A stretch of DNA of 37,763 nucleotides from a virus (Duplodnaviria; Heunggongvirae; Uroviricota; Caudoviricetes), in IMG/VR virus record IMGVR_UViG_2522572023_000009; one strand, written 5' to 3'. Below the pieces are notes generated by a model. That model was given only the letters and a program-made list of their open reading frames with translations. It did not search any database and was not told the DNA's origin. Position numbers and translations under genes: made by a program. Position 1 is the stretch's first letter, and each line of letters begins with the position of its first letter. Below, piece after piece: positions 8,687 through 37,286 of this stretch.

Positions 8687-8899
8687 ATGCTTGAATGGTT
8701 AAATAACTATATAGGTACTGATTGGGCCACATATCTTGGAGTGTTTCTGGCGATTTTGTCATTAATTTGGGGAGGAAGCAAAGCTCTTAAAAAAAAATCA
8801 ATCAACCAAAAAGCAAAAACCAACGGAGGCATAGTTATTCAGGTTGGTGGTAATTTCCAAGGAGAAAATAACAATGAATCAAAAAGCTCAAGCAAATGA
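8687..8899 (+). CDS. Cargo ORF1: small protein (70 aa) with one N-terminal transmembrane helix and a Lys/Asn/Ser-rich tail
   Basis: ATG at 8687 follows an AAGGA ribosome-binding site with ~9 nt spacing. The protein has a hydrophobic helix (WATYLGVFLAILSLIWGG). The gene is AT-rich, lies on the strand opposite the late operon between FI and G, and contains an A9 homopolymer (about 8789–8797). Confidence 0.5.
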   Translation: MLEWLNNYIGTDWATYLGVFLAILSLIWGGSKALKKKSINQKAKTNGGIVIQVGGNFQGENNNESKSSSK

Positions 8900-9686
8900 G
8901 AACTCAACTATAATACAGGTTGCGGGAAGTTTAAATCAAGGAATCAGCTTTGCCGACTGCGAAAGATTATTCAATTTATTGCTAAAAGAGAACTTCCCAA
9001 AACTCGAAGCCATTGCAGCCTCAACAGCAAAGAGAAATGTTGACACCTTAGTCAAAGCGACATTCGAAAAAATTGATTCAAAGATTAATCAAATCAACGT
9101 GGAAAAACTTGCTCAGCCTGATGTACAAAGTACTTTTAATAGCGCAGTTCAAGGCGTTGCTAGAAAGGGTTCCAAAATAGATATCGATTTACTGGCCGAC
9201 TTACTGGAAGCCAGAATCGAAAAAGATAATACTAACTATATTGATAATTGCATTGAAGCGGCAGTGGAGATGGTGCCCAAACTAACCAGTGATATGCTAG
9301 TAATCTTGCCAGCATTGTATTTTATTCAAGAACTGGAATGGAGTAACCCTACTGAAATTGATAATGTTTATGGCTTAATCTATGACCGTTTTTTATCGCG
9401 AGGTGGTACTATATCACATTCAAAACTCAAGACGATGGCTTCTATTGGGGTGGGCATTTACGTCAATGTTATAGGAAGCAATACCTTTGAAGGCATGAAG
9501 AAAAAATACTCTTGCTTACAAGTAATTAACGCAGAATCAAAATATCCGAGAATGCATCAGGCCTTAAACTTCTATGACCAAAAAGACTTACATCAACTAA
9601 CACTTACCACTCCGGGCCAAGTAATAGCAATCAAAATGCTGGAAGAAATATTTCCCACAATAAATTTGCGCGATTTTTTGCAGTAA
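8844..9686 (+). CDS. Cargo ORF2: hypothetical soluble protein, probably 270 aa from the ATG at 8874
   Basis: The track start at 8844 is a TTG; an ATG at 8874 is preceded by AAGGAG at 8859–8864. The gene overlaps ORF1 by 26 nt. The protein is predicted largely helical and has no motif I recognise; the gene is AT-rich. Confidence 0.6.
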   Translation: MVVISKEKITMNQKAQANENSTIIQVAGSLNQGISFADCERLFNLLLKENFPKLEAIAASTAKRNVDTLVKATFEKIDSKINQINVEKLAQPDVQSTFNSAVQGVARKGSKIDIDLLADLLEARIEKDNTNYIDNCIEAAVEMVPKLTSDMLVILPALYFIQELEWSNPTEIDNVYGLIYDRFLSRGGTISHSKLKTMASIGVGIYVNVIGSNTFEGMKKKYSCLQVINAESKYPRMHQALNFYDQKDLHQLTLTTPGQVIAIKMLEEIFPTINLRDFLQ

Positions 9687-10027: not shown

Positions 10028-10555
10028 TTATTGCGGCATTTCCGGCCATTCAGGATTTGCAGGATCCACACGACTGACCAGAACACTGTAGCGTTCCCAT
10101 GCTTCCAGTCGGCTGCGTTCCTCCTCTGTTGCCATATTTAGCCTGACAGCGCGCTCCAGCAGCAAAATCACGGATTCAGCTTCGGAAAGTAAAGTTGCCT
10201 TTTGTGATTCTGCCAGTTGATGCTGTTCGTCTGCCGTATAAATCCGCTTAATCACGGCACCATCCTTAAACATCCATTTACCTGAGTCATCAGCACGTCG
10301 GTTGGCGGTAATATCAGGAACCTCGACAACGCTAAAACCTTCAGGGTTAAGCGTTGAAGCATCTCTGGTGATGCCGACAATTATATTATTCTCGTCGTAA
10401 ACAATCTTTATCGTGTCTTCCTGAAAATTACTTACTTCCTCATACCAGTTTTTTCCGTCTTCAGACCATAACCAGATAACATCAAAATTTTTTGTCAGTT
10501 GATATTGAGCAACAGTTTTGGGATTACCCGCAGTAATATTTTTTAAATGCTGCAT
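10028..10555 (-). CDS. G: gpG-like tail fibre assembly chaperone, 175 aa
   Basis: Length and position (downstream of H) match P2 gpG. GC content is lower than in the neighbouring structural genes, suggesting a swapped host-range module. Confidence 0.8.
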
Positions 10556-12497: not shown

Positions 12498-13028
12498 TTA
12501 TCCGGGGTAAACCGTAATTACATCGCCGTCGTAAGCCACACCACCGGCGAACAGGTAGCCGGGAATGTCCCGGGTAATGTTCAGGCCAATAAGATGGCGG
12601 CTTGCAGGTTTGGCATCAGCAATCAGCCGTTCCATTTCCTGATACATTGCCTCTGTGATGCCGCTTTCCAGTACACCAATATCAAGCCGGAAGGTGCCGG
12701 GCGGGTCACTGTTTTCCCACCACTCCGTCACGTTGATGAGATAGCCGAGCGGCTCCACCACACGCCGGATTGCGCCGATAGTGCCTTTATGACAGTGGAT
12801 GAAATAGGCATCGCGGATAACGGCGCGTTTTGTCGCTTCCGGCCACTTTTCATCCCACCTGTCGACCGAAAACGCCCACGCCAGCCACGGCAGCAGATTT
12901 GCCGGACAGGTATCCGGGTTCCACAGTTCACGAATCCTGACCGGCGTTTTTTCAATTTCCGCACAGGCTTTTGCGGCAGCAACTTCAAGCGGTGATGAGC
13001 CGGTCGGCAGCAGTCGCGAATCACTCAT
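12498..13028 (-). CDS. I: gpI baseplate protein, 176 aa
   Basis: Length and synteny match P2 gpI. Confidence 0.85.
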   Translation of the reverse strand: MSDSRLLPTGSSPLEVAAAKACAEIEKTPVRIRELWNPDTCPANLLPWLAWAFSVDRWDEKWPEATKRAVIRDAYFIHCHKGTIGAIRRVVEPLGYLINVTEWWENSDPPGTFRLDIGVLESGITEAMYQEMERLIADAKPASRHLIGLNITRDIPGYLFAGGVAYDGDVITVYPG

Positions 13029-14996: not shown

Positions 14997-15782
14997 ATGG
15001 TCAGCTATAATGTGACTAATGTGTGGGAGCTAATCGTTTTTTTTCTTTGTAGCTTTGCAGTATTAGCATTTTTTAGCTTTGGTAAAAGTAACCTTATGAG
15101 GCTTATTGCACATTATTTCAATTTTGGATATTCAGACAAAAAATTAAAAAGACTTGACCGCGAGTGGCGCGACATTCAACCATTTAAAATAATTAACGGA
15201 ATCAATGTATCAGGCATTGAAAATGTGAGAATGATACAGCAGGAACTGATTGATGGAAAACTAAAAACATCGTATTTTTTCCTTACTCGCATCTGGGGTG
15301 ACATAACAAAACCACCACACATAATTAAAACAATAATTGTAATTCTGGCCAGTATTTTTTACATTCTCCTCGCATGTTACATACACAACGAACAATCCGC
15401 TATAGTAAGGGATGCCATAGGCATACCATATAAAAACATGATGTACTATGTTTATAGTGACAAAGTTCTTTTATCCTTCAAAAATAAAGCTGTTGAATTT
15501 AATAAAACTTATAGCCTTGCCGATTGCAAGAGACTGCAAAACGTATTTATAAAAGACACACTTCCTGAGATCGCCTGCAATAAGCTATTACAGCTAAACG
15601 AGGAGGACTCCGAATGGTTAAGTCAGGAGATTAAAGATAATAACAGCCACAAAAAAGCATTATTAATACTATCCCTCGTCTATTTCACTTCAGGTCTGGT
15701 TATATTCCTGTCATATACAAAATTCTTTTACGCCAATAAGAAGGTTTTAGAATACAAAGCATCAAATAAAAATCACTCATAA
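14997..15782 (+). CDS. Cargo membrane protein, 261 aa, about three predicted transmembrane helices, unknown function
   Basis: An AAGGAG ribosome-binding site sits 7 nt upstream of the ATG. Hydrophobic helices lie near residues 10–30, 120–140 and 220–242. The gene is strongly AT-rich, lies between V and S on the strand opposite the late genes, and is followed by a terminator. Confidence 0.65.
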   Translation: MVSYNVTNVWELIVFFLCSFAVLAFFSFGKSNLMRLIAHYFNFGYSDKKLKRLDREWRDIQPFKIINGINVSGIENVRMIQQELIDGKLKTSYFFLTRIWGDITKPPHIIKTIIVILASIFYILLACYIHNEQSAIVRDAIGIPYKNMMYYVYSDKVLLSFKNKAVEFNKTYSLADCKRLQNVFIKDTLPEIACNKLLQLNEEDSEWLSQEIKDNNSHKKALLILSLVYFTSGLVIFLSYTKFFYANKKVLEYKASNKNHS

Positions 15783-16306: not shown

Positions 16307-16766
16307 CCCACTTGCTCACCAGTTCGCCATTGATATAAAGCTCCATCGGGCGGGTGACCGGCTCCGGCGGCGGGGGTTCCGGGATATTCTTCACATGCAG
16401 TGCGCCGTCGACCTCACTGACCAGCGTGCGCTCGGTCAGCATCAGGCTGATGCTGATATCAAAGCTGCTGTCATTGTTGATGTCTGCATAAAACGTGAAG
16501 CCCTTTTTCTGGCCTGCGTCGGTGGTCATGATGTCGGGCTGATTTTCCCGCAGCCACGCCAGCACCGGCACAATGAGCAGGTCAAAATCACCGGTAAAGT
16601 CGGTCACAATGACATTGAGCGTGTAACGCTTTTCGAATGACAGCGACGTCGCCAGTGTGGAGGCAATACTCCCGTTATCCACGAATATCCGCAGCATATC
16701 GGGGTTAGTTTTCAGCACCGTGACGGCATCAGTCAGCGCCCTGCGCAGGCTGTCGGGTTTGAGCAT
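16299..16766 (-). CDS. R: gpR tail completion protein, 155 aa
   Basis: Length and synteny match P2 gpR. Confidence 0.8.
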   Translation of the reverse strand: MLKPDSLRRALTDAVTVLKTNPDMLRIFVDNGSIASTLATSLSFEKRYTLNVIVTDFTGDFDLLIVPVLAWLRENQPDIMTTDAGQKKGFTFYADINNDSSFDISISLMLTERTLVSEVDGALHVKNIPEPPPPEPVTRPMELYINGELVSKWDE

Positions 16767-17019
16767 CGTTTTCGTCCTGACAGTATTTAATCATTTTTAC
16801 CTGGCTGGCACAGCGCGCCAGCGCGTTCTCAAGCTGCCGGATATCGGCACTTAAATCACCGTTCGTCTCCGGGTCGCTGCCCGGCATCGGGCAAAGGCTC
16901 ACTTTGGGGCAGGCGTTGGGGACAATCACTGGCGTCGGTGCAGGCCGGACGCTGGTGCAACCGGCGCACAGCATCAGGCAGGTCAGCACCGTACCAGCGG
17001 CGGAAATCTTCGTTTTCAT
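16729..17019 (-). CDS. lysC: LysC, Rz1-like outer-membrane spanin lipoprotein, ~96 aa
   Basis: An internal Met gives MKTKISAAGTVLTCLMLCAGC followed by a Pro-rich segment, i.e. a lipoprotein signal with a lipobox Cys. It is embedded out of frame in the 3' end of lysB and overlaps R, as in P2. Confidence 0.7.
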   Translation of the reverse strand: MKTKISAAGTVLTCLMLCAGCTSVRPAPTPVIVPNACPKVSLCPMPGSDPETNGDLSADIRQLENALARCASQVKMIKYCQDENDAQTRQPAQGAD

Positions 17020-17299
17020 TGAGTAATCTCGTGATGGTTTTCTCGCGCTGAGCTTCACGCTTCGCGGCGTTCTCCAGTTCCTGACGCAGTGCCACCTGCG
17101 CCAGCTCGTTTTTGTCTGCCCTGGTGAGCGCAACATGAAGCTGATTTTTCAGCATGGTGATGGTCGTCTGCTGCCCGCTGGCGACGTTGCTCGCCCTGTC
17201 CAGTGAGGTGCGCAGGCTGGCGTTTTCATGCTTCGCCAGAAACAGACCTACCACCGCCAGTGATAACAACACAACCAGCACAATCATCAGCTTTGACAT
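16856..17299 (-). CDS. lysB: LysB, Rz-like inner-membrane spanin, ~147 aa
   Basis: The internal start MSKLMIVLVVLLSLAVVGLFLA gives an N-terminal transmembrane helix followed by a coiled-coil-like region. In this sequence it forms the 3' part of the 455-aa track ORF because of the K frameshift. Confidence 0.7.
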   Translation of the reverse strand: MSKLMIVLVVLLSLAVVGLFLAKHENASLRTSLDRASNVASGQQTTITMLKNQLHVALTRADKNELAQVALRQELENAAKREAQREKTITRLLNENEDFRRWYGADLPDAVRRLHQRPACTDASDCPQRLPQSEPLPDAGQRPGDER

Positions 17300-17712
17300 G
17301 GTTCCCGCCCCCCAAAACGCTGACGGCAGGCCGTACGTATCAGCCGGAAAAACAGTGACGCCACGAGATAAATCAGCGCGGTAAAAATCCATCCGGCGGC
17401 GACCAGCGAGATAAACGTCGCCACCATCACCACCAGAGCCGCTGCCCGTCTGCGCCACGGCACCGGCTGCAAAAACAGCGACGTGACAATCTTCACGGCC
17501 AGCGATTCCGGCGGAAGCTCCCGCCCGTAGCGTTCCAGTACATACTCTGTGGCATACACGCCGACACAACCGGCAACCACACAGATAACCGTCGCCAGAA
17601 TCGCCCAGGCAGCGACAAAACTGACGGCCACGCTCTGCGGGTAAATCAGGGACAGTGCCAGCATCAGCGCCAGCGACACGTTCAGCATCAGTGAAAGGGA
17701 TAATTTCTTCAT
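17287..17712 (-). CDS. lysA: LysA, lysis-timing membrane protein, 141 aa
   Basis: Length matches P2 LysA; the protein has multiple hydrophobic helices. Confidence 0.8.
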   Translation of the reverse strand: MKKLSLSLMLNVSLALMLALSLIYPQSVAVSFVAAWAILATVICVVAGCVGVYATEYVLERYGRELPPESLAVKIVTSLFLQPVPWRRRAAALVVMVATFISLVAAGWIFTALIYLVASLFFRLIRTACRQRFGGREPCQS

Positions 17713-17726
17713 GGTGTTTACTCCGT

Positions 17727-18223
17727 TTAAGCCGGTACGCCGCCAGCGGTACGCCAGACGGTGACCAGTTTTTCCAGTGAATGCTCACGCTGACCGTAAC
17801 CGGCACCCGGCAGGGACGCCCAGATATTGCGACAGCGTGAAATGGCGCGCTCAATGCGTCCCGCCGGATGTCATCCAGCGCACCGCGTTCGCGGATCAAC
17901 TGAATGGCGAGTCTGTCCTGTGACAACGGACTGAAATCCGGCAGGGCAAGCTGTTTGCGGTAATGCGGCCAGAACAGGTAAAGCTGCTGATAGCGACCGG
18001 AGGCCGTGGATTTTTCACCGCGACGGTTAAACACCTTCGCCGGTCGACCATGTGCGAACGGGTGGTCACTGTAGTCGGTGAAGATTTCCGGCTTCCCGTC
18101 CAGTCCGGTGACTATCACGTCATAGCCCCGGTTTTTCGTCAGCGGATGGTTCGCCGTCCCTTCGGACACGGCCAGCATGTCGAGAAAGGCGGCGATATTC
18201 TGATGCGTGTTAATTACCGGCAT
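17727..18223 (-). pseudogene. K: gpK endolysin (T4-lysozyme-like) carrying a 1-nt frameshift deletion near 17863–17866
   Basis: The first 120 aa (MPVINTHQNIAAFLDMLAVSEGTANHPLTKNRGYDVIVTGLDGKPEIF...ALDDIR) are endolysin-like. The natural C-terminus (AGRIERAISRCRNIWASLPGAGYGQREHSLEKLVTVWRTAGGVPA, then stop) is in another frame. The span from ATG to that TAA is 497 nt rather than the 498 needed for 165 aa plus stop. Confidence 0.6.
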
Positions 18224-18504
18224 TACGGTTTCCCCCTGCCCTTAAAGCGGCGCTGAATGGCAATCTCAATCACCTGATAACCGGCGATACCCAGCATGGA
18301 GCCGATGCCGCACACCGCAGGCAGTGACAGGTCAGGAAACTGCACCAGAACAACACCGGCAACCATCGAGACAAAACCACCGAGCAACATGCGCCCGATA
18401 AACAGACGCGGGGTGATGGGTTCACCACCGGCAAGCACCTTGCCGACAACAATCAGCACCCCAATCATGAAAAGCGACAGGACGCTTTTTTCTTCTGCTG
18501 TCAT
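18223..18504 (-). CDS. Y: gpY holin, 93 aa
   Basis: Length matches P2 Y; the protein has transmembrane segments and a charged C-terminus. Confidence 0.85.
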   Translation of the reverse strand: MTAEEKSVLSLFMIGVLIVVGKVLAGGEPITPRLFIGRMLLGGFVSMVAGVVLVQFPDLSLPAVCGIGSMLGIAGYQVIEIAIQRRFKGRGKP

Positions 18505-18507
18505 GCG

Positions 18508-18711
18508 TTACTCCCACAGATTGACAGTTTCAGCCACGGGCGCGGTCTGAACGTCGGGCAGTTCGACGGCGGTGCCGTGTGGCAGCACCGCACCCAGTTC
18601 AGCCAGTCCCGGATTTGCGGCGAGCACGGTCTCAACCACGCCCTCAGTGCGCCCGTAATACCGGACACAAATGGCGTCGAGCGTGTCGCCCTGTAGCGCA
18701 AAGGTCTTCAT
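18508..18711 (-). CDS. X: gpX tail protein (LysM-like), 67 aa
   Basis: The internal start MKTFALQGDTLDAICVRYYG gives 67 aa, as in P2 X. Confidence 0.8.
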   Translation of the reverse strand: MKTFALQGDTLDAICVRYYGRTEGVVETVLAANPGLAELGAVLPHGTAVELPDVQTAPVAETVNLWE

Positions 18712-25345: not shown

Positions 25346-27367
25346 TTATAATTTCCTCAACAATTTCCCATTGTTCTTATCAAAGGATATCATTGTATAG
25401 TCATACCCTTCTAATGCCTCTTTTAAGACATTTTCATCTTCTGATGTAGCAAAAATGATCTGCCCTTGTCCTTTTGTTGTTTCTGCAGCATCTTTAAGTA
25501 ACTCGGCAAAACTTACTTTATTTGCTTCTTGTTGACGAGGCTCATCAAACACAATCAATCCAGGGTGATTTGTTTGAAATTTAGAACCAACAACAAATAA
25601 ACTTATTAAATAACCCCAAATGATTCTTATTCCATCACTAGCTGATGTGTCAAAACCTATATCATATCCTTCCCTAGTAGGTAAGTAATTATCTTCTGAT
25701 ATTGACACAAGTTTAGAATCAAAACTTGTAAAATTATATTTTTCTAATCGTGCAACGACTTCTTTATTAAGAAATTTTAACTTATCGGCATCATTACGCG
25801 ACAAGAAATTATCTGGCAATCCTTTTCTTTTCGCGATAAGCTTTTTATATCTACGGTGTAATGAATCCAACTCCAGTCTAATGTCCAATATACTTTTAAT
25901 GCCATCGTTAATGGCATTAATTTTATTCTCAATGTTTATTTTACGTCTCAGAAACTCCTCCTGAACAACCATTGAGGGATATTTTGACTCCCTTAATGCA
26001 TTAATATCAACTCTAATCTTGGCTATTTCCCCCTCTAAATCACTCCTCTCAACATCTTTAAGCTTTAATTGCTTTTCACTATCCGACAGAACAAACTCAA
26101 ATGCTTTTACTTGCTCTTTAATAAAGTTCAAACTATCTTCATATGTCATCAGATTTTCTTGCGATGAAAAACTTAGCAAATTATCATTATAACTTGCACC
26201 ACAAGTCGGACAAATATTTGACATTAAATCTGTTGACTTATACGCATCCGAAGATGATATTTTCTTTAAATCTTCATACTTCCTTTTATCTTCCAACAGA
26301 TTATACAATCTGTTTTTGGTCGCCTGAATTTGATATTGAATATAACTTCTATGCTCACAAATCTCTTTAATCTTTAATTCCAGAGAGTTAATTTCATCAT
26401 TTTTTTGACCTAATAACTTAACCACTGATAATTGTAAAGTTTGTTCTTCTTGCTCACCAAGAGTGTCAAACTTAATTTCTTGCAACTCTTTTTCCAGTTC
26501 ATTACGAACATCAACAATAGATCTAACGACACTACCATTTTTAATAATCAAATCTATCTTATAATGATCAAATTTTGCCACTGGTTGTTCAGGAATCCCT
26601 GTGACAACTGACGACAATTTAGAAGCAATAACTTCTGCATTGTGTTTAATTAACTTCCAATCATGATAAATAATATCAAGTTCATTTCTTAACGAACTAC
26701 GCAATAAAATATTATCATTAACATCAAGAGACATTAAAAATTCTAGAGCTCTTTTCTTTGGCTCTTTAATTCCAAATTGTGTTGGTACAGTCGCCATAAT
26801 TGACGACCATCCTTTTTTTTGCTCAACATACCATGCAGGGAAAAGTACGGATGGATAAAGAATAGTGTCCTTCCCATTATGGTTTGGAACATTTGGCAAA
26901 CTCCAACCTATAAAATCAGCTAACCACTTATAGAAACCACGTTCCCTTTCAGTATCGCCCTCTCTATGTAAAAAATAAGTACCACTCTTACTTTTTACAT
27001 TATTCTTCTCATCTATATAAATAACATTATTATTATCGTGACCGATAATATTCCTTTTCAAAGATGCTTCTATTCCCTTATGATTCTTTATTTTTAGCAA
27101 AACATAAGATGATATTACACTAACTTCAACATTATCTTTTGTCGTTAGTGCTCTAGTCAAAGATGGAGGGAATGGGATTTTTCCAGAACCGACACCTAAT
27201 GCCTTTTCCATCCCAAGTGCATATGCAATCCCATTCATGCAAGTTGATTTACCATGAGAATTCTCAACTCTTAATAAAAACAAGCCATTTGAAAAAGGTA
27301 TACTAACACCATAACGCCCATCCGAAGTATTTGCTACTAACTCCAATGAAATAATTTCCAACGACAT
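25346..27367 (-). CDS. Cargo gene 3: SMC/Rad50-like ABC ATPase with coiled-coil and CxxC hook, 673 aa (candidate LmuB/DdmC-like)
   Basis: An N-terminal P-loop (ENSHGKST), a long Lys/Glu/Leu-rich coiled-coil region with a central CPTC motif, and a C-terminal Walker B/D-loop (LIVFDEPRQQ). There is no nuclease domain after the ATPase C-lobe. The gene is strongly AT-rich. Confidence 0.7.
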   Translation of the reverse strand: MSLEIISLELVANTSDGRYGVSIPFSNGLFLLRVENSHGKSTCMNGIAYALGMEKALGVGSGKIPFPPSLTRALTTKDNVEVSVISSYVLLKIKNHKGIEASLKRNIIGHDNNNVIYIDEKNNVKSKSGTYFLHREGDTERERGFYKWLADFIGWSLPNVPNHNGKDTILYPSVLFPAWYVEQKKGWSSIMATVPTQFGIKEPKKRALEFLMSLDVNDNILLRSSLRNELDIIYHDWKLIKHNAEVIASKLSSVVTGIPEQPVAKFDHYKIDLIIKNGSVVRSIVDVRNELEKELQEIKFDTLGEQEEQTLQLSVVKLLGQKNDEINSLELKIKEICEHRSYIQYQIQATKNRLYNLLEDKRKYEDLKKISSSDAYKSTDLMSNICPTCGASYNDNLLSFSSQENLMTYEDSLNFIKEQVKAFEFVLSDSEKQLKLKDVERSDLEGEIAKIRVDINALRESKYPSMVVQEEFLRRKINIENKINAINDGIKSILDIRLELDSLHRRYKKLIAKRKGLPDNFLSRNDADKLKFLNKEVVARLEKYNFTSFDSKLVSISEDNYLPTREGYDIGFDTSASDGIRIIWGYLISLFVVGSKFQTNHPGLIVFDEPRQQEANKVSFAELLKDAAETTKGQGQIIFATSEDENVLKEALEGYDYTMISFDKNNGKLLRKL

Positions 27368-27368
27368 A

Positions 27369-27845
27369 TTAACCCACCTGAAATATTTTATTAATGTTAG
27401 TTTCGGACAGTCCAGCCTTATGTTTATTTAGCACCAACCTTTCTTCTTTGAACACATCAAGAGAAAGCAATTTCTCAGCGACCTTAAGCCCCTTTTCATT
27501 TATTTTGAACGCTCGTTCATTTCTCAAAATAAAATCCTCTGCTAATAATAGCTGTATTGCTCTATCTAAAGTTGGATCCAATCTTACTTCAGGCTTTAAA
27601 CCTTCTTTGTTTAAAAGCCAGAATTCAAACATTGCTTCATTATTCTCTGACTTTAACATCCAATTAATTAAATGAAGTTTTTTTAAAGAACAGCAACCAG
27701 CTCTCCCTGTGACAAGGAATATTATCAGCAACAAACTGCAACGCCACAATGGTCTCATATCACATGGCAAATGTTCAGGTCGTTTATTAAACGTAAACGG
27801 CCTTCCTATTATTTCATCTATCGTTATATGCATTTGCTTTTCCAT
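27369..27845 (-). CDS. Cargo gene 2: small hypothetical protein, 158 aa (candidate middle component)
   Basis: Tightly coupled to its neighbours (1-nt gaps on both sides), on the same strand and AT-rich; no motif I recognise. Confidence 0.6.
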   Translation of the reverse strand: MEKQMHITIDEIIGRPFTFNKRPEHLPCDMRPLWRCSLLLIIFLVTGRAGCCSLKKLHLINWMLKSENNEAMFEFWLLNKEGLKPEVRLDPTLDRAIQLLLAEDFILRNERAFKINEKGLKVAEKLLSLDVFKEERLVLNKHKAGLSETNINKIFQVG

Positions 27846-37259: not shown

Positions 37260-37286
37260 AATCTCCCTTACACGGGCTTATTTTTT
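37260..37286. repeat. attR core: 27-bp P2-type attachment core, identical to attL
   Basis: AATCTCCCTTACACGGGCTTATTTTTT, about 80 bp downstream of the int stop. Confidence 0.85.

Follow-up and report, generated by a model that had tools for sequence, protein, structure and literature searches.

A recent one-base deletion in K, the endolysin gene of a P2-like prophage in an Escherichia coli O145:H28 outbreak clone

The endolysin gene K of a P2-like prophage located between yegQ and yegR in an Escherichia coli O145:H28 outbreak clone most probably carries a genuine 1-bp deletion (GGG to GG, at codons 120/121) that arose recently and has been clonally inherited; we put the probability of this reading at roughly 0.93. 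The frameshift is already known, in the sense that RefSeq marks the locus as a pseudogene, and it is an ordinary inactivating mutation of the kind seen in ordinary prophage decay. The PGAP annotation of positions 17727-18223, given alike for strains RM12761 and RM13516, reads 'glycoside hydrolase family 24 protein, frameshifted'. Two O145:H28 genome papers were examined, and they mention neither this prophage nor the K frameshift.

The stretch of DNA analysed here (37,763 nt; hereafter, the window) is identical to positions 2625549-2663311 of NZ_CP007133.1, the chromosome of E. coli O145:H28 str. RM12761. This strain is the ice-cream isolate of the 2007 Belgian outbreak, and RM13516 is the clinical isolate of the same outbreak (PMC4032123). 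According to the annotation, the gene order of the prophage from ogr to int is the same as in P2, and P2-family capsid, terminase and tail genes are present. The lysis region shows 95-97% nucleotide identity to Peduovirus genomes. From these features and the att core repeats at both ends (Table 1), we classify the element as a P2-like (Peduovirus) prophage. In RefSeq, the prophage genes other than K and int are all annotated as intact, including the structural genes and the Lamassu operon. The coordinates of the features are collected in Table 1.

Table 1. Features of the P2-like prophage and its lysis, cargo and integrase regions (positions in the window)
Feature	Position	Strand	Remarks
P2-like prophage, whole	1507-37286		Between yegQ and yegR; bounded by 27-bp direct repeats
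27-bp direct repeats (att core), AATCTCCCTTACACGGGCTTATTTTTT	1507-1533 and 37260-37286		Script search
lysC (Rz1-like spanin lipoprotein)	16729-16974	minus	Intact; NF038368, E 3e-31
lysB (Rz-like spanin)	16856-17299	minus	Intact; TIGR03495, E 6e-51; shares the shifted-K frame
Read-through ORF	16856-18223	minus	455 codons: K(1-120) + 188 off-frame codons + LysB(147)
lysA (antiholin-type membrane protein)	17287-17712	minus	Intact ORF; NF038378, E 8.5e-35; crossed off-frame by the read-through
TGG in the lysB frame (TGA in 8/8 relatives)	17312-17314	minus	lysA GAG to GGG, LysA E134G
Gene K pseudogene (lambda-R-type endolysin)	17727-18223	minus	497 nt instead of 498; alignment and PGAP label
Original K C-terminal part, 45 codons + stop	17727-17863	minus	Stranded out of frame; contains the NIWASLPGAGYGQ block
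Deletion site	17864-17865	minus	GG on the coding strand (CC on +); GGG in every wild-type copy examined
Y (holin)	18223-18504	minus	Intact; stop overlaps the K start codon
LmuB	25346-27367	minus	PADLOC, E 1e-98
LmuC	27369-27833	minus	PADLOC, E 2e-23
LmuA	27847-28755	minus	PADLOC, E 9e-30
int fragments	33717-33995 and 36437-37180		Split by ISEc8
ISEc8 (IS66 family, 2442 bp) in the integrase gene	33995-36436	minus	8-bp target duplication
8-bp target duplication, AAAATAAC	33987-33994 and 36437-36444		Flanks ISEc8

The prophage also contains several cargo genes. A three-gene Lamassu anti-phage operon (25346-28755, minus strand) occupies the P2 cargo slot between the portal gene Q and the replication gene A; its genes gave no Pfam match, and all three are annotated as 'hypothetical protein' in RefSeq. 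Between the tail fibre and sheath genes (8687-9686, plus strand) lie genes for a 70-aa hypothetical protein and a 270-aa 'LPO_1073/Vpar_1526 family' protein, and a 261-aa protein is encoded at the orf30 position (14997-15782, plus strand). No Pfam or PADLOC match was obtained for these proteins of 70, 270 and 261 aa.

K starts with the ATG at 18223 on the minus strand and has its normal stop at 17727-17729, a span of 497 nt. Translation in frame 0 of K yields 120 residues of gpK followed by unrelated out-of-frame sequence, and the 45 C-terminal residues of K, AGRIERAISRCRNIWASLPGAGYGQREHSLEKLVTVWRTAGGVPA, followed by the stop, are found in another frame (frame 2). The alignment of K, which took in P2 K (AF063097 6997-7494, 498 nt), an intact copy from E. 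coli 50579417 and the copy of RM13516, contains a single gap of one G (CCGGGCGGG to CCGGCGGG; gene positions 359-361, at the boundary of codons 120 and 121); in its wider context, the wild-type ATCCGGGCGGGAC is replaced by ATCCGGCGGGAC in the window. When the G is restored, the K protein is 100% identical to both P2 gpK and the K protein of RM13514, and the five nucleotide differences between the window K and RM13514 K are all synonymous. P2 K and the window K are identical at 492 of 497 aligned nucleotides, and the latter differs in that it lacks one G and has only residues 1-120 in frame. These results agree with an earlier reading of the DNA made from the sequence alone, which had counted 497 nt instead of 498 from ATG to stop, had recognised 120 lysozyme-like codons with the C-terminal 45 codons and the stop in another frame, and had placed a missing base in the C/G run at 17863-17866, where the alignment puts the CC at 17864-17865. 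The comparison with P2 K that it had proposed as a check also shows that P2 K is 165 aa long with the C-terminus expected there. The window K thus has no uninterrupted 165-codon frame including the C-terminal NIWASLPGAGYGQ block; since the reading frame breaks off after codon 120 and leaves the block out of frame, the K locus is a pseudogene and not a functional member of its family.

The allele was found in several separately sequenced sources. RM13516 carries an identical 497-nt K. The Logan assembly of run ERR6099482 shares the deletion; over 7,368 nt, its alignment to the window contains a single substitution and is free of gaps. An identical 497-nt K is present in the NCBI draft GCA_013422455.1, with one substitution in 5,426 nt. 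Because each of these two assemblies is one SNP off the window elsewhere, they are not copies of one record. In an exact-sequence look-up, the 455-aa read-through product that results from the deletion was found on at least 24 contigs, mostly of 10-20 kb and including the Logan assembly (30 index blocks listed). The carriers of the allele are near-clonal, so 'independent' refers here to independent sequencing and not to independent mutation. A 42-mer centred on the deletion occurs in RM12761 and RM13516 and in no other of 5,426 complete E. coli genomes. Each of the 75 phage matches that cover the K-lysA-lysB segment in full is one base longer than the query. In a spread sample comprising about 1,490 E. 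coli records, all 58 full-length copies of K are 498 nt long, with no parallel K loss among these 58 prophages. In the GTDB species representatives, which comprise one genome per species and therefore offer low power, the mutant 31-mer had no exact match and the wild-type 32-mer had one, in E. albertii. The isolate, assembly, 42-mer, phage and 58-copy data together indicate that the K deletion is specific to the clone and is vertically inherited on a background in which K is almost always intact.

The repaired K protein aligns over residues 9-163 to residues 7-152 of lambda lysozyme R (PDB 1AM7/3D3D) with an E value of 4e-44. No family match for K was obtained in the Pfam and NCBIfam scans, so its family was assigned from the sequence match to lambda lysozyme in the PDB. 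The lost residues 121-165 correspond to the C-terminal part of lambda R, beginning at about residue 110. Over this segment, 25 of 43 residues are identical, including 13 consecutive ones that form the NIWASLPGAGYGQ block, which makes it the best-conserved part of K. In the mutant, unrelated sequence takes the place of the final 45 residues of this lambda-R-type muramidase/transglycosylase, and with them the invariant block is lost. The N-terminal segment is retained, with K residues 14-23 (FLDMLAVSEGT) aligned to FLDMLAWSEGT of lambda R; this LDMLAxSEGT segment presumably contains the catalytic Glu (E19 of lambda R). The repaired K thus has both the LDMLAxSEGT segment and the NIWASLPGAGYGQ block in common with lambda R, a lytic transglycosylase, whereas lambda R residues from about 110 onward have no equivalent in the pseudogene product.

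From this homology, the mutant K product is likely to be devoid of endolysin activity: the deletion shifts the frame after residue 120 and removes the 45 C-terminal residues, which would inactivate the enzyme. The cassette order Y-K-lysA-lysB-lysC is annotated as in P2, with K at the same position between the holin gene Y and lysA. In the P2 GenBank record, gpK (AAD03276.1) is described as 'endolysin; essential for host cell lysis'; lysA and lysB are given there as non-essential timing functions (AF063097; summarised in PMC3091744). Because K is annotated as essential for P2 lysis, the prophage is probably lysis-defective, and it would probably be unable to lyse its host even with the late genes expressed. 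Low-level spontaneous +1 frameshifting at CGG-C may produce a K protein one residue short. P2-type prophages are not known to be SOS-inducible, and the phenotypic consequence of the deletion in the lysogen may for this reason be close to nil.

The integrase gene contains a second lesion. It is split by an ISEc8 element; when ISEc8 and one copy of the target duplication are removed in silico, a 337-aa int ORF is regained. Few IS elements are as abundant in this strain as ISEc8 (PMC3893438). The insertion would be expected to block excision as well; taken together, the loss of K and the split int suggest an immobilised prophage that is unable to lyse its host and is at an early stage of decay. 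The same pattern, namely a frameshift in an essential late gene and an IS in the integrase with most genes intact, is seen in defective prophages of enterohaemorrhagic E. coli. Compared with generic prophage decay in enterohaemorrhagic E. coli, the present case has nothing distinctive; it is an early-stage example, in a P2-like rather than a lambdoid prophage.

Two groups of related prophages allowed the relative timing of these lesions to be considered. Strain C325 (NZ_CP124819.1) carries a sister prophage at the same yegQ/yegR site and with the same Lamassu cargo, which differs from the window by 29 substitutions and two indels over 31.1 kb (99.9% identity). Its K and its 337-aa int are intact, its LysA has G49 and it contains no IS. 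Because K, LysA and int are intact in C325, the lesions of the window arose after the two prophages had diverged. The inactivation is regarded as recent because the repaired K is identical to the P2 gpK and RM13514 K proteins and because the C325 sister is intact. The ST32 O145:H28 strains RM13514 and RM9872 carry another related P2-like prophage, whose late region is 98.96% identical over 15.3 kb. It has the same LysB and the same lysA TGG allele as the window (described below), an intact K and LysA G49, but differs in its attachment site (cpxP/fieF), its integrase, its regulatory-region HTH and Cox-family proteins, and its cargo.

Several smaller differences were observed in these comparisons. 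The cargo of the ST32 prophage includes a DNA cytosine methyltransferase, a ParB-N-domain protein and a SMEK-domain protein. At the H/G junction (window position 10547), the window and the RM13514 prophage differ by one base. The tail-fibre assembly gene is 528 nt long in the window and in C325 and 564 nt long in RM13514, and PGAP annotates both forms as intact. Within a 534-nt interval (18047-18580), seven substitutions separate the window from C325 and RM13514, all of them synonymous except Y P93Q, and the flanks of this interval are nearly identical. This pattern resembles a short recombination patch that covers X and Y together with the 5' half of K and stops some 180 nt upstream of the deletion. 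In C325, a G5 run located 13 nt before the stop of Y (equivalent to window position 18236) contains one additional G, and PGAP calls the gene 'partial' (12648-12930 of the C325 region); the added base may represent a separate lesion in a lysis gene or a homopolymer miscall in that assembly.

A further lineage-specific change, G49C, was found in LysA (codon at 17566-17568). It is present only in RM12761 and RM13516 among the 5,426 complete genomes, so that its distribution in complete genomes equals that of the K deletion, and the two sites are within 300 nt of each other. For the window LysA with G49C, 64 index blocks were listed, among them GCA_013422455.1. In an alternative reading, the prophage was disarmed and immobilised by selection and did not decay neutrally, with the loss of K, LysA G49C and the ISEc8 insertion in int favoured together because they keep a useful prophage (Lamassu, superinfection immunity) without the killing of the host. 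The three lineage-specific changes do all affect lysis or excision, two of them with matching distributions and close together in the lysis cassette, and the structural genes and the Lamassu operon are annotated as intact. However, the sample is tiny, comprising a single frameshift, a single missense change and a single IS insertion, and the high abundance of ISEc8 in this strain (PMC3893438) also counts against such an explanation, as does the lack of parallel K losses in the 58 sampled prophages. Moreover, selection against K should be weak, as P2-type prophages are not known to be inducible. We therefore consider selected disarmament unlikely. If true, it would represent an early and datable step in the domestication of a P2 prophage that carries Lamassu in the ST6130 outbreak lineage of O145:H28, for which the intact C325 sister prophage would be a natural comparator.

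The sequence-only reading had offered two explanations for the frameshift: either a decaying prophage has acquired a genuine mutation that makes it lysis-defective, or the sequence contains an indel error. In the latter case, the strain would truly have GGG and an intact K. The lesion indeed affects just one base of a short G run, and both complete genomes come from one laboratory. In addition, 454 reads, in which homopolymers are miscalled, went into the original assemblies. However, the G run is just three bases long, and RM12761 was sequenced not only by 454 Titanium but also by Illumina HiSeq and PacBio CCS (PMC4032123). The deletion also appears in the unrelated ENA run ERR6099482 and in GCA_013422455.1, and its 455-aa product is present on the contigs counted above. 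With the same deletion in several isolates and separate assemblies, a sequencing or assembly indel is highly improbable. A genuine mutation in a decaying prophage is supported by this recurrence across separately sequenced isolates and assemblies, by the ISEc8 insertion in int and by the intact sister prophage.

The deletion also creates a long read-through ORF, which ends at the lysB stop and contains the entire 147-aa LysB in frame, with the lysB ATG at 17299; 188 codons separate the deletion from this ATG. The shifted frame, which has no stop in this allele, runs through these 188 codons across lysA and passes in frame into lysB, and ribosomes following it could lower initiation at LysA and LysB. 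The original GenBank records deposit the 455-aa ORF as 'Phage lysin' (AHG15349.1 and AHY65679.1). The sequence-only reading correctly described the shifted frame as that of lysB, open across lysA and giving a 455-codon ORF; its figure of about 190 stop-free codons is here refined to 188. Its further view, that such an open frame is in itself unusual, finds only slight support. When the codon order of lysA was shuffled, this frame was stop-free in 5.0% of 20,000 trials, and synonymous resampling of lysA left it stop-free in 3.7%. Elsewhere in the window, ten more stretches of 197-353 codons, all located entirely outside annotated frames, are free of stops, and one to four stops interrupt the lysB frame between K and lysB in all eight wild-type relatives (P2 and seven others). 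In P2, these stops are located 676, 889 and 910 nt from the K start, whereas the window allele has none.

The openness of the frame is accounted for by a single codon. All eight wild-type relatives have a TGA five codons upstream of the lysB ATG, and the frame is open here because this allele has TGG instead, which removes the last stop before lysB. The TGG allele is present in 24 complete genomes, mostly O145, of which 22 are without the K deletion; in the three of these that were examined (RM13514, RM9872 and C325), K is annotated as intact. We therefore rejected the idea that the change from TGA to TGG arose together with the frameshift. The possibility that a conserved gene in the lysB frame overlaps lysA was also rejected, on the basis of the stops in 8/8 relatives, the probability of about 0.04-0.05 for an open frame and the ten similar stretches. 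The 188-residue linker is Ala/Gly/Arg-rich off-frame sequence, and in the Pfam and NCBIfam scans the 455-aa ORF gave no Pfam match and family matches from its LysB part only. The 455-codon ORF is thus not a gene; it results by accident from the combination of the new deletion with a lysA allele that is older and harmless. A programmed frameshift producing full-length K, or a selected and functional K(1-120)-X188-LysB chimera, is very unlikely: the 188 stop-free codons do join LysB exactly in frame, across a lysA frame that stays open in about 4-5% of codon shuffles, but AUC CGG CGG GAC contains neither an X XXY YYZ heptamer nor a long homopolymer, the architecture occurs in 2/5,426 complete genomes (one clone), 0/75 phages and 0/58 sampled E. 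coli copies, and the closed frame of the relatives, the TGG allele in 22 complete genomes without the K deletion, the ten comparable stretches, the linker composition and the lack of a Pfam match all argue against it.

Reading the K deletion as a genuine and recent mutation has few consequences, chiefly for annotation. AHG15349.1 and AHY65679.1 are annotation artefacts of the frameshifted K, and the RefSeq pseudogene call is correct. The prophage of the window and its intact C325 sister form a clean before/after pair for studies of early prophage decay. The P2-like prophage of the outbreak clone probably neither excises nor lyses its host, which matters only for the counting of inducible prophages and mobile defence cargo in O145:H28.
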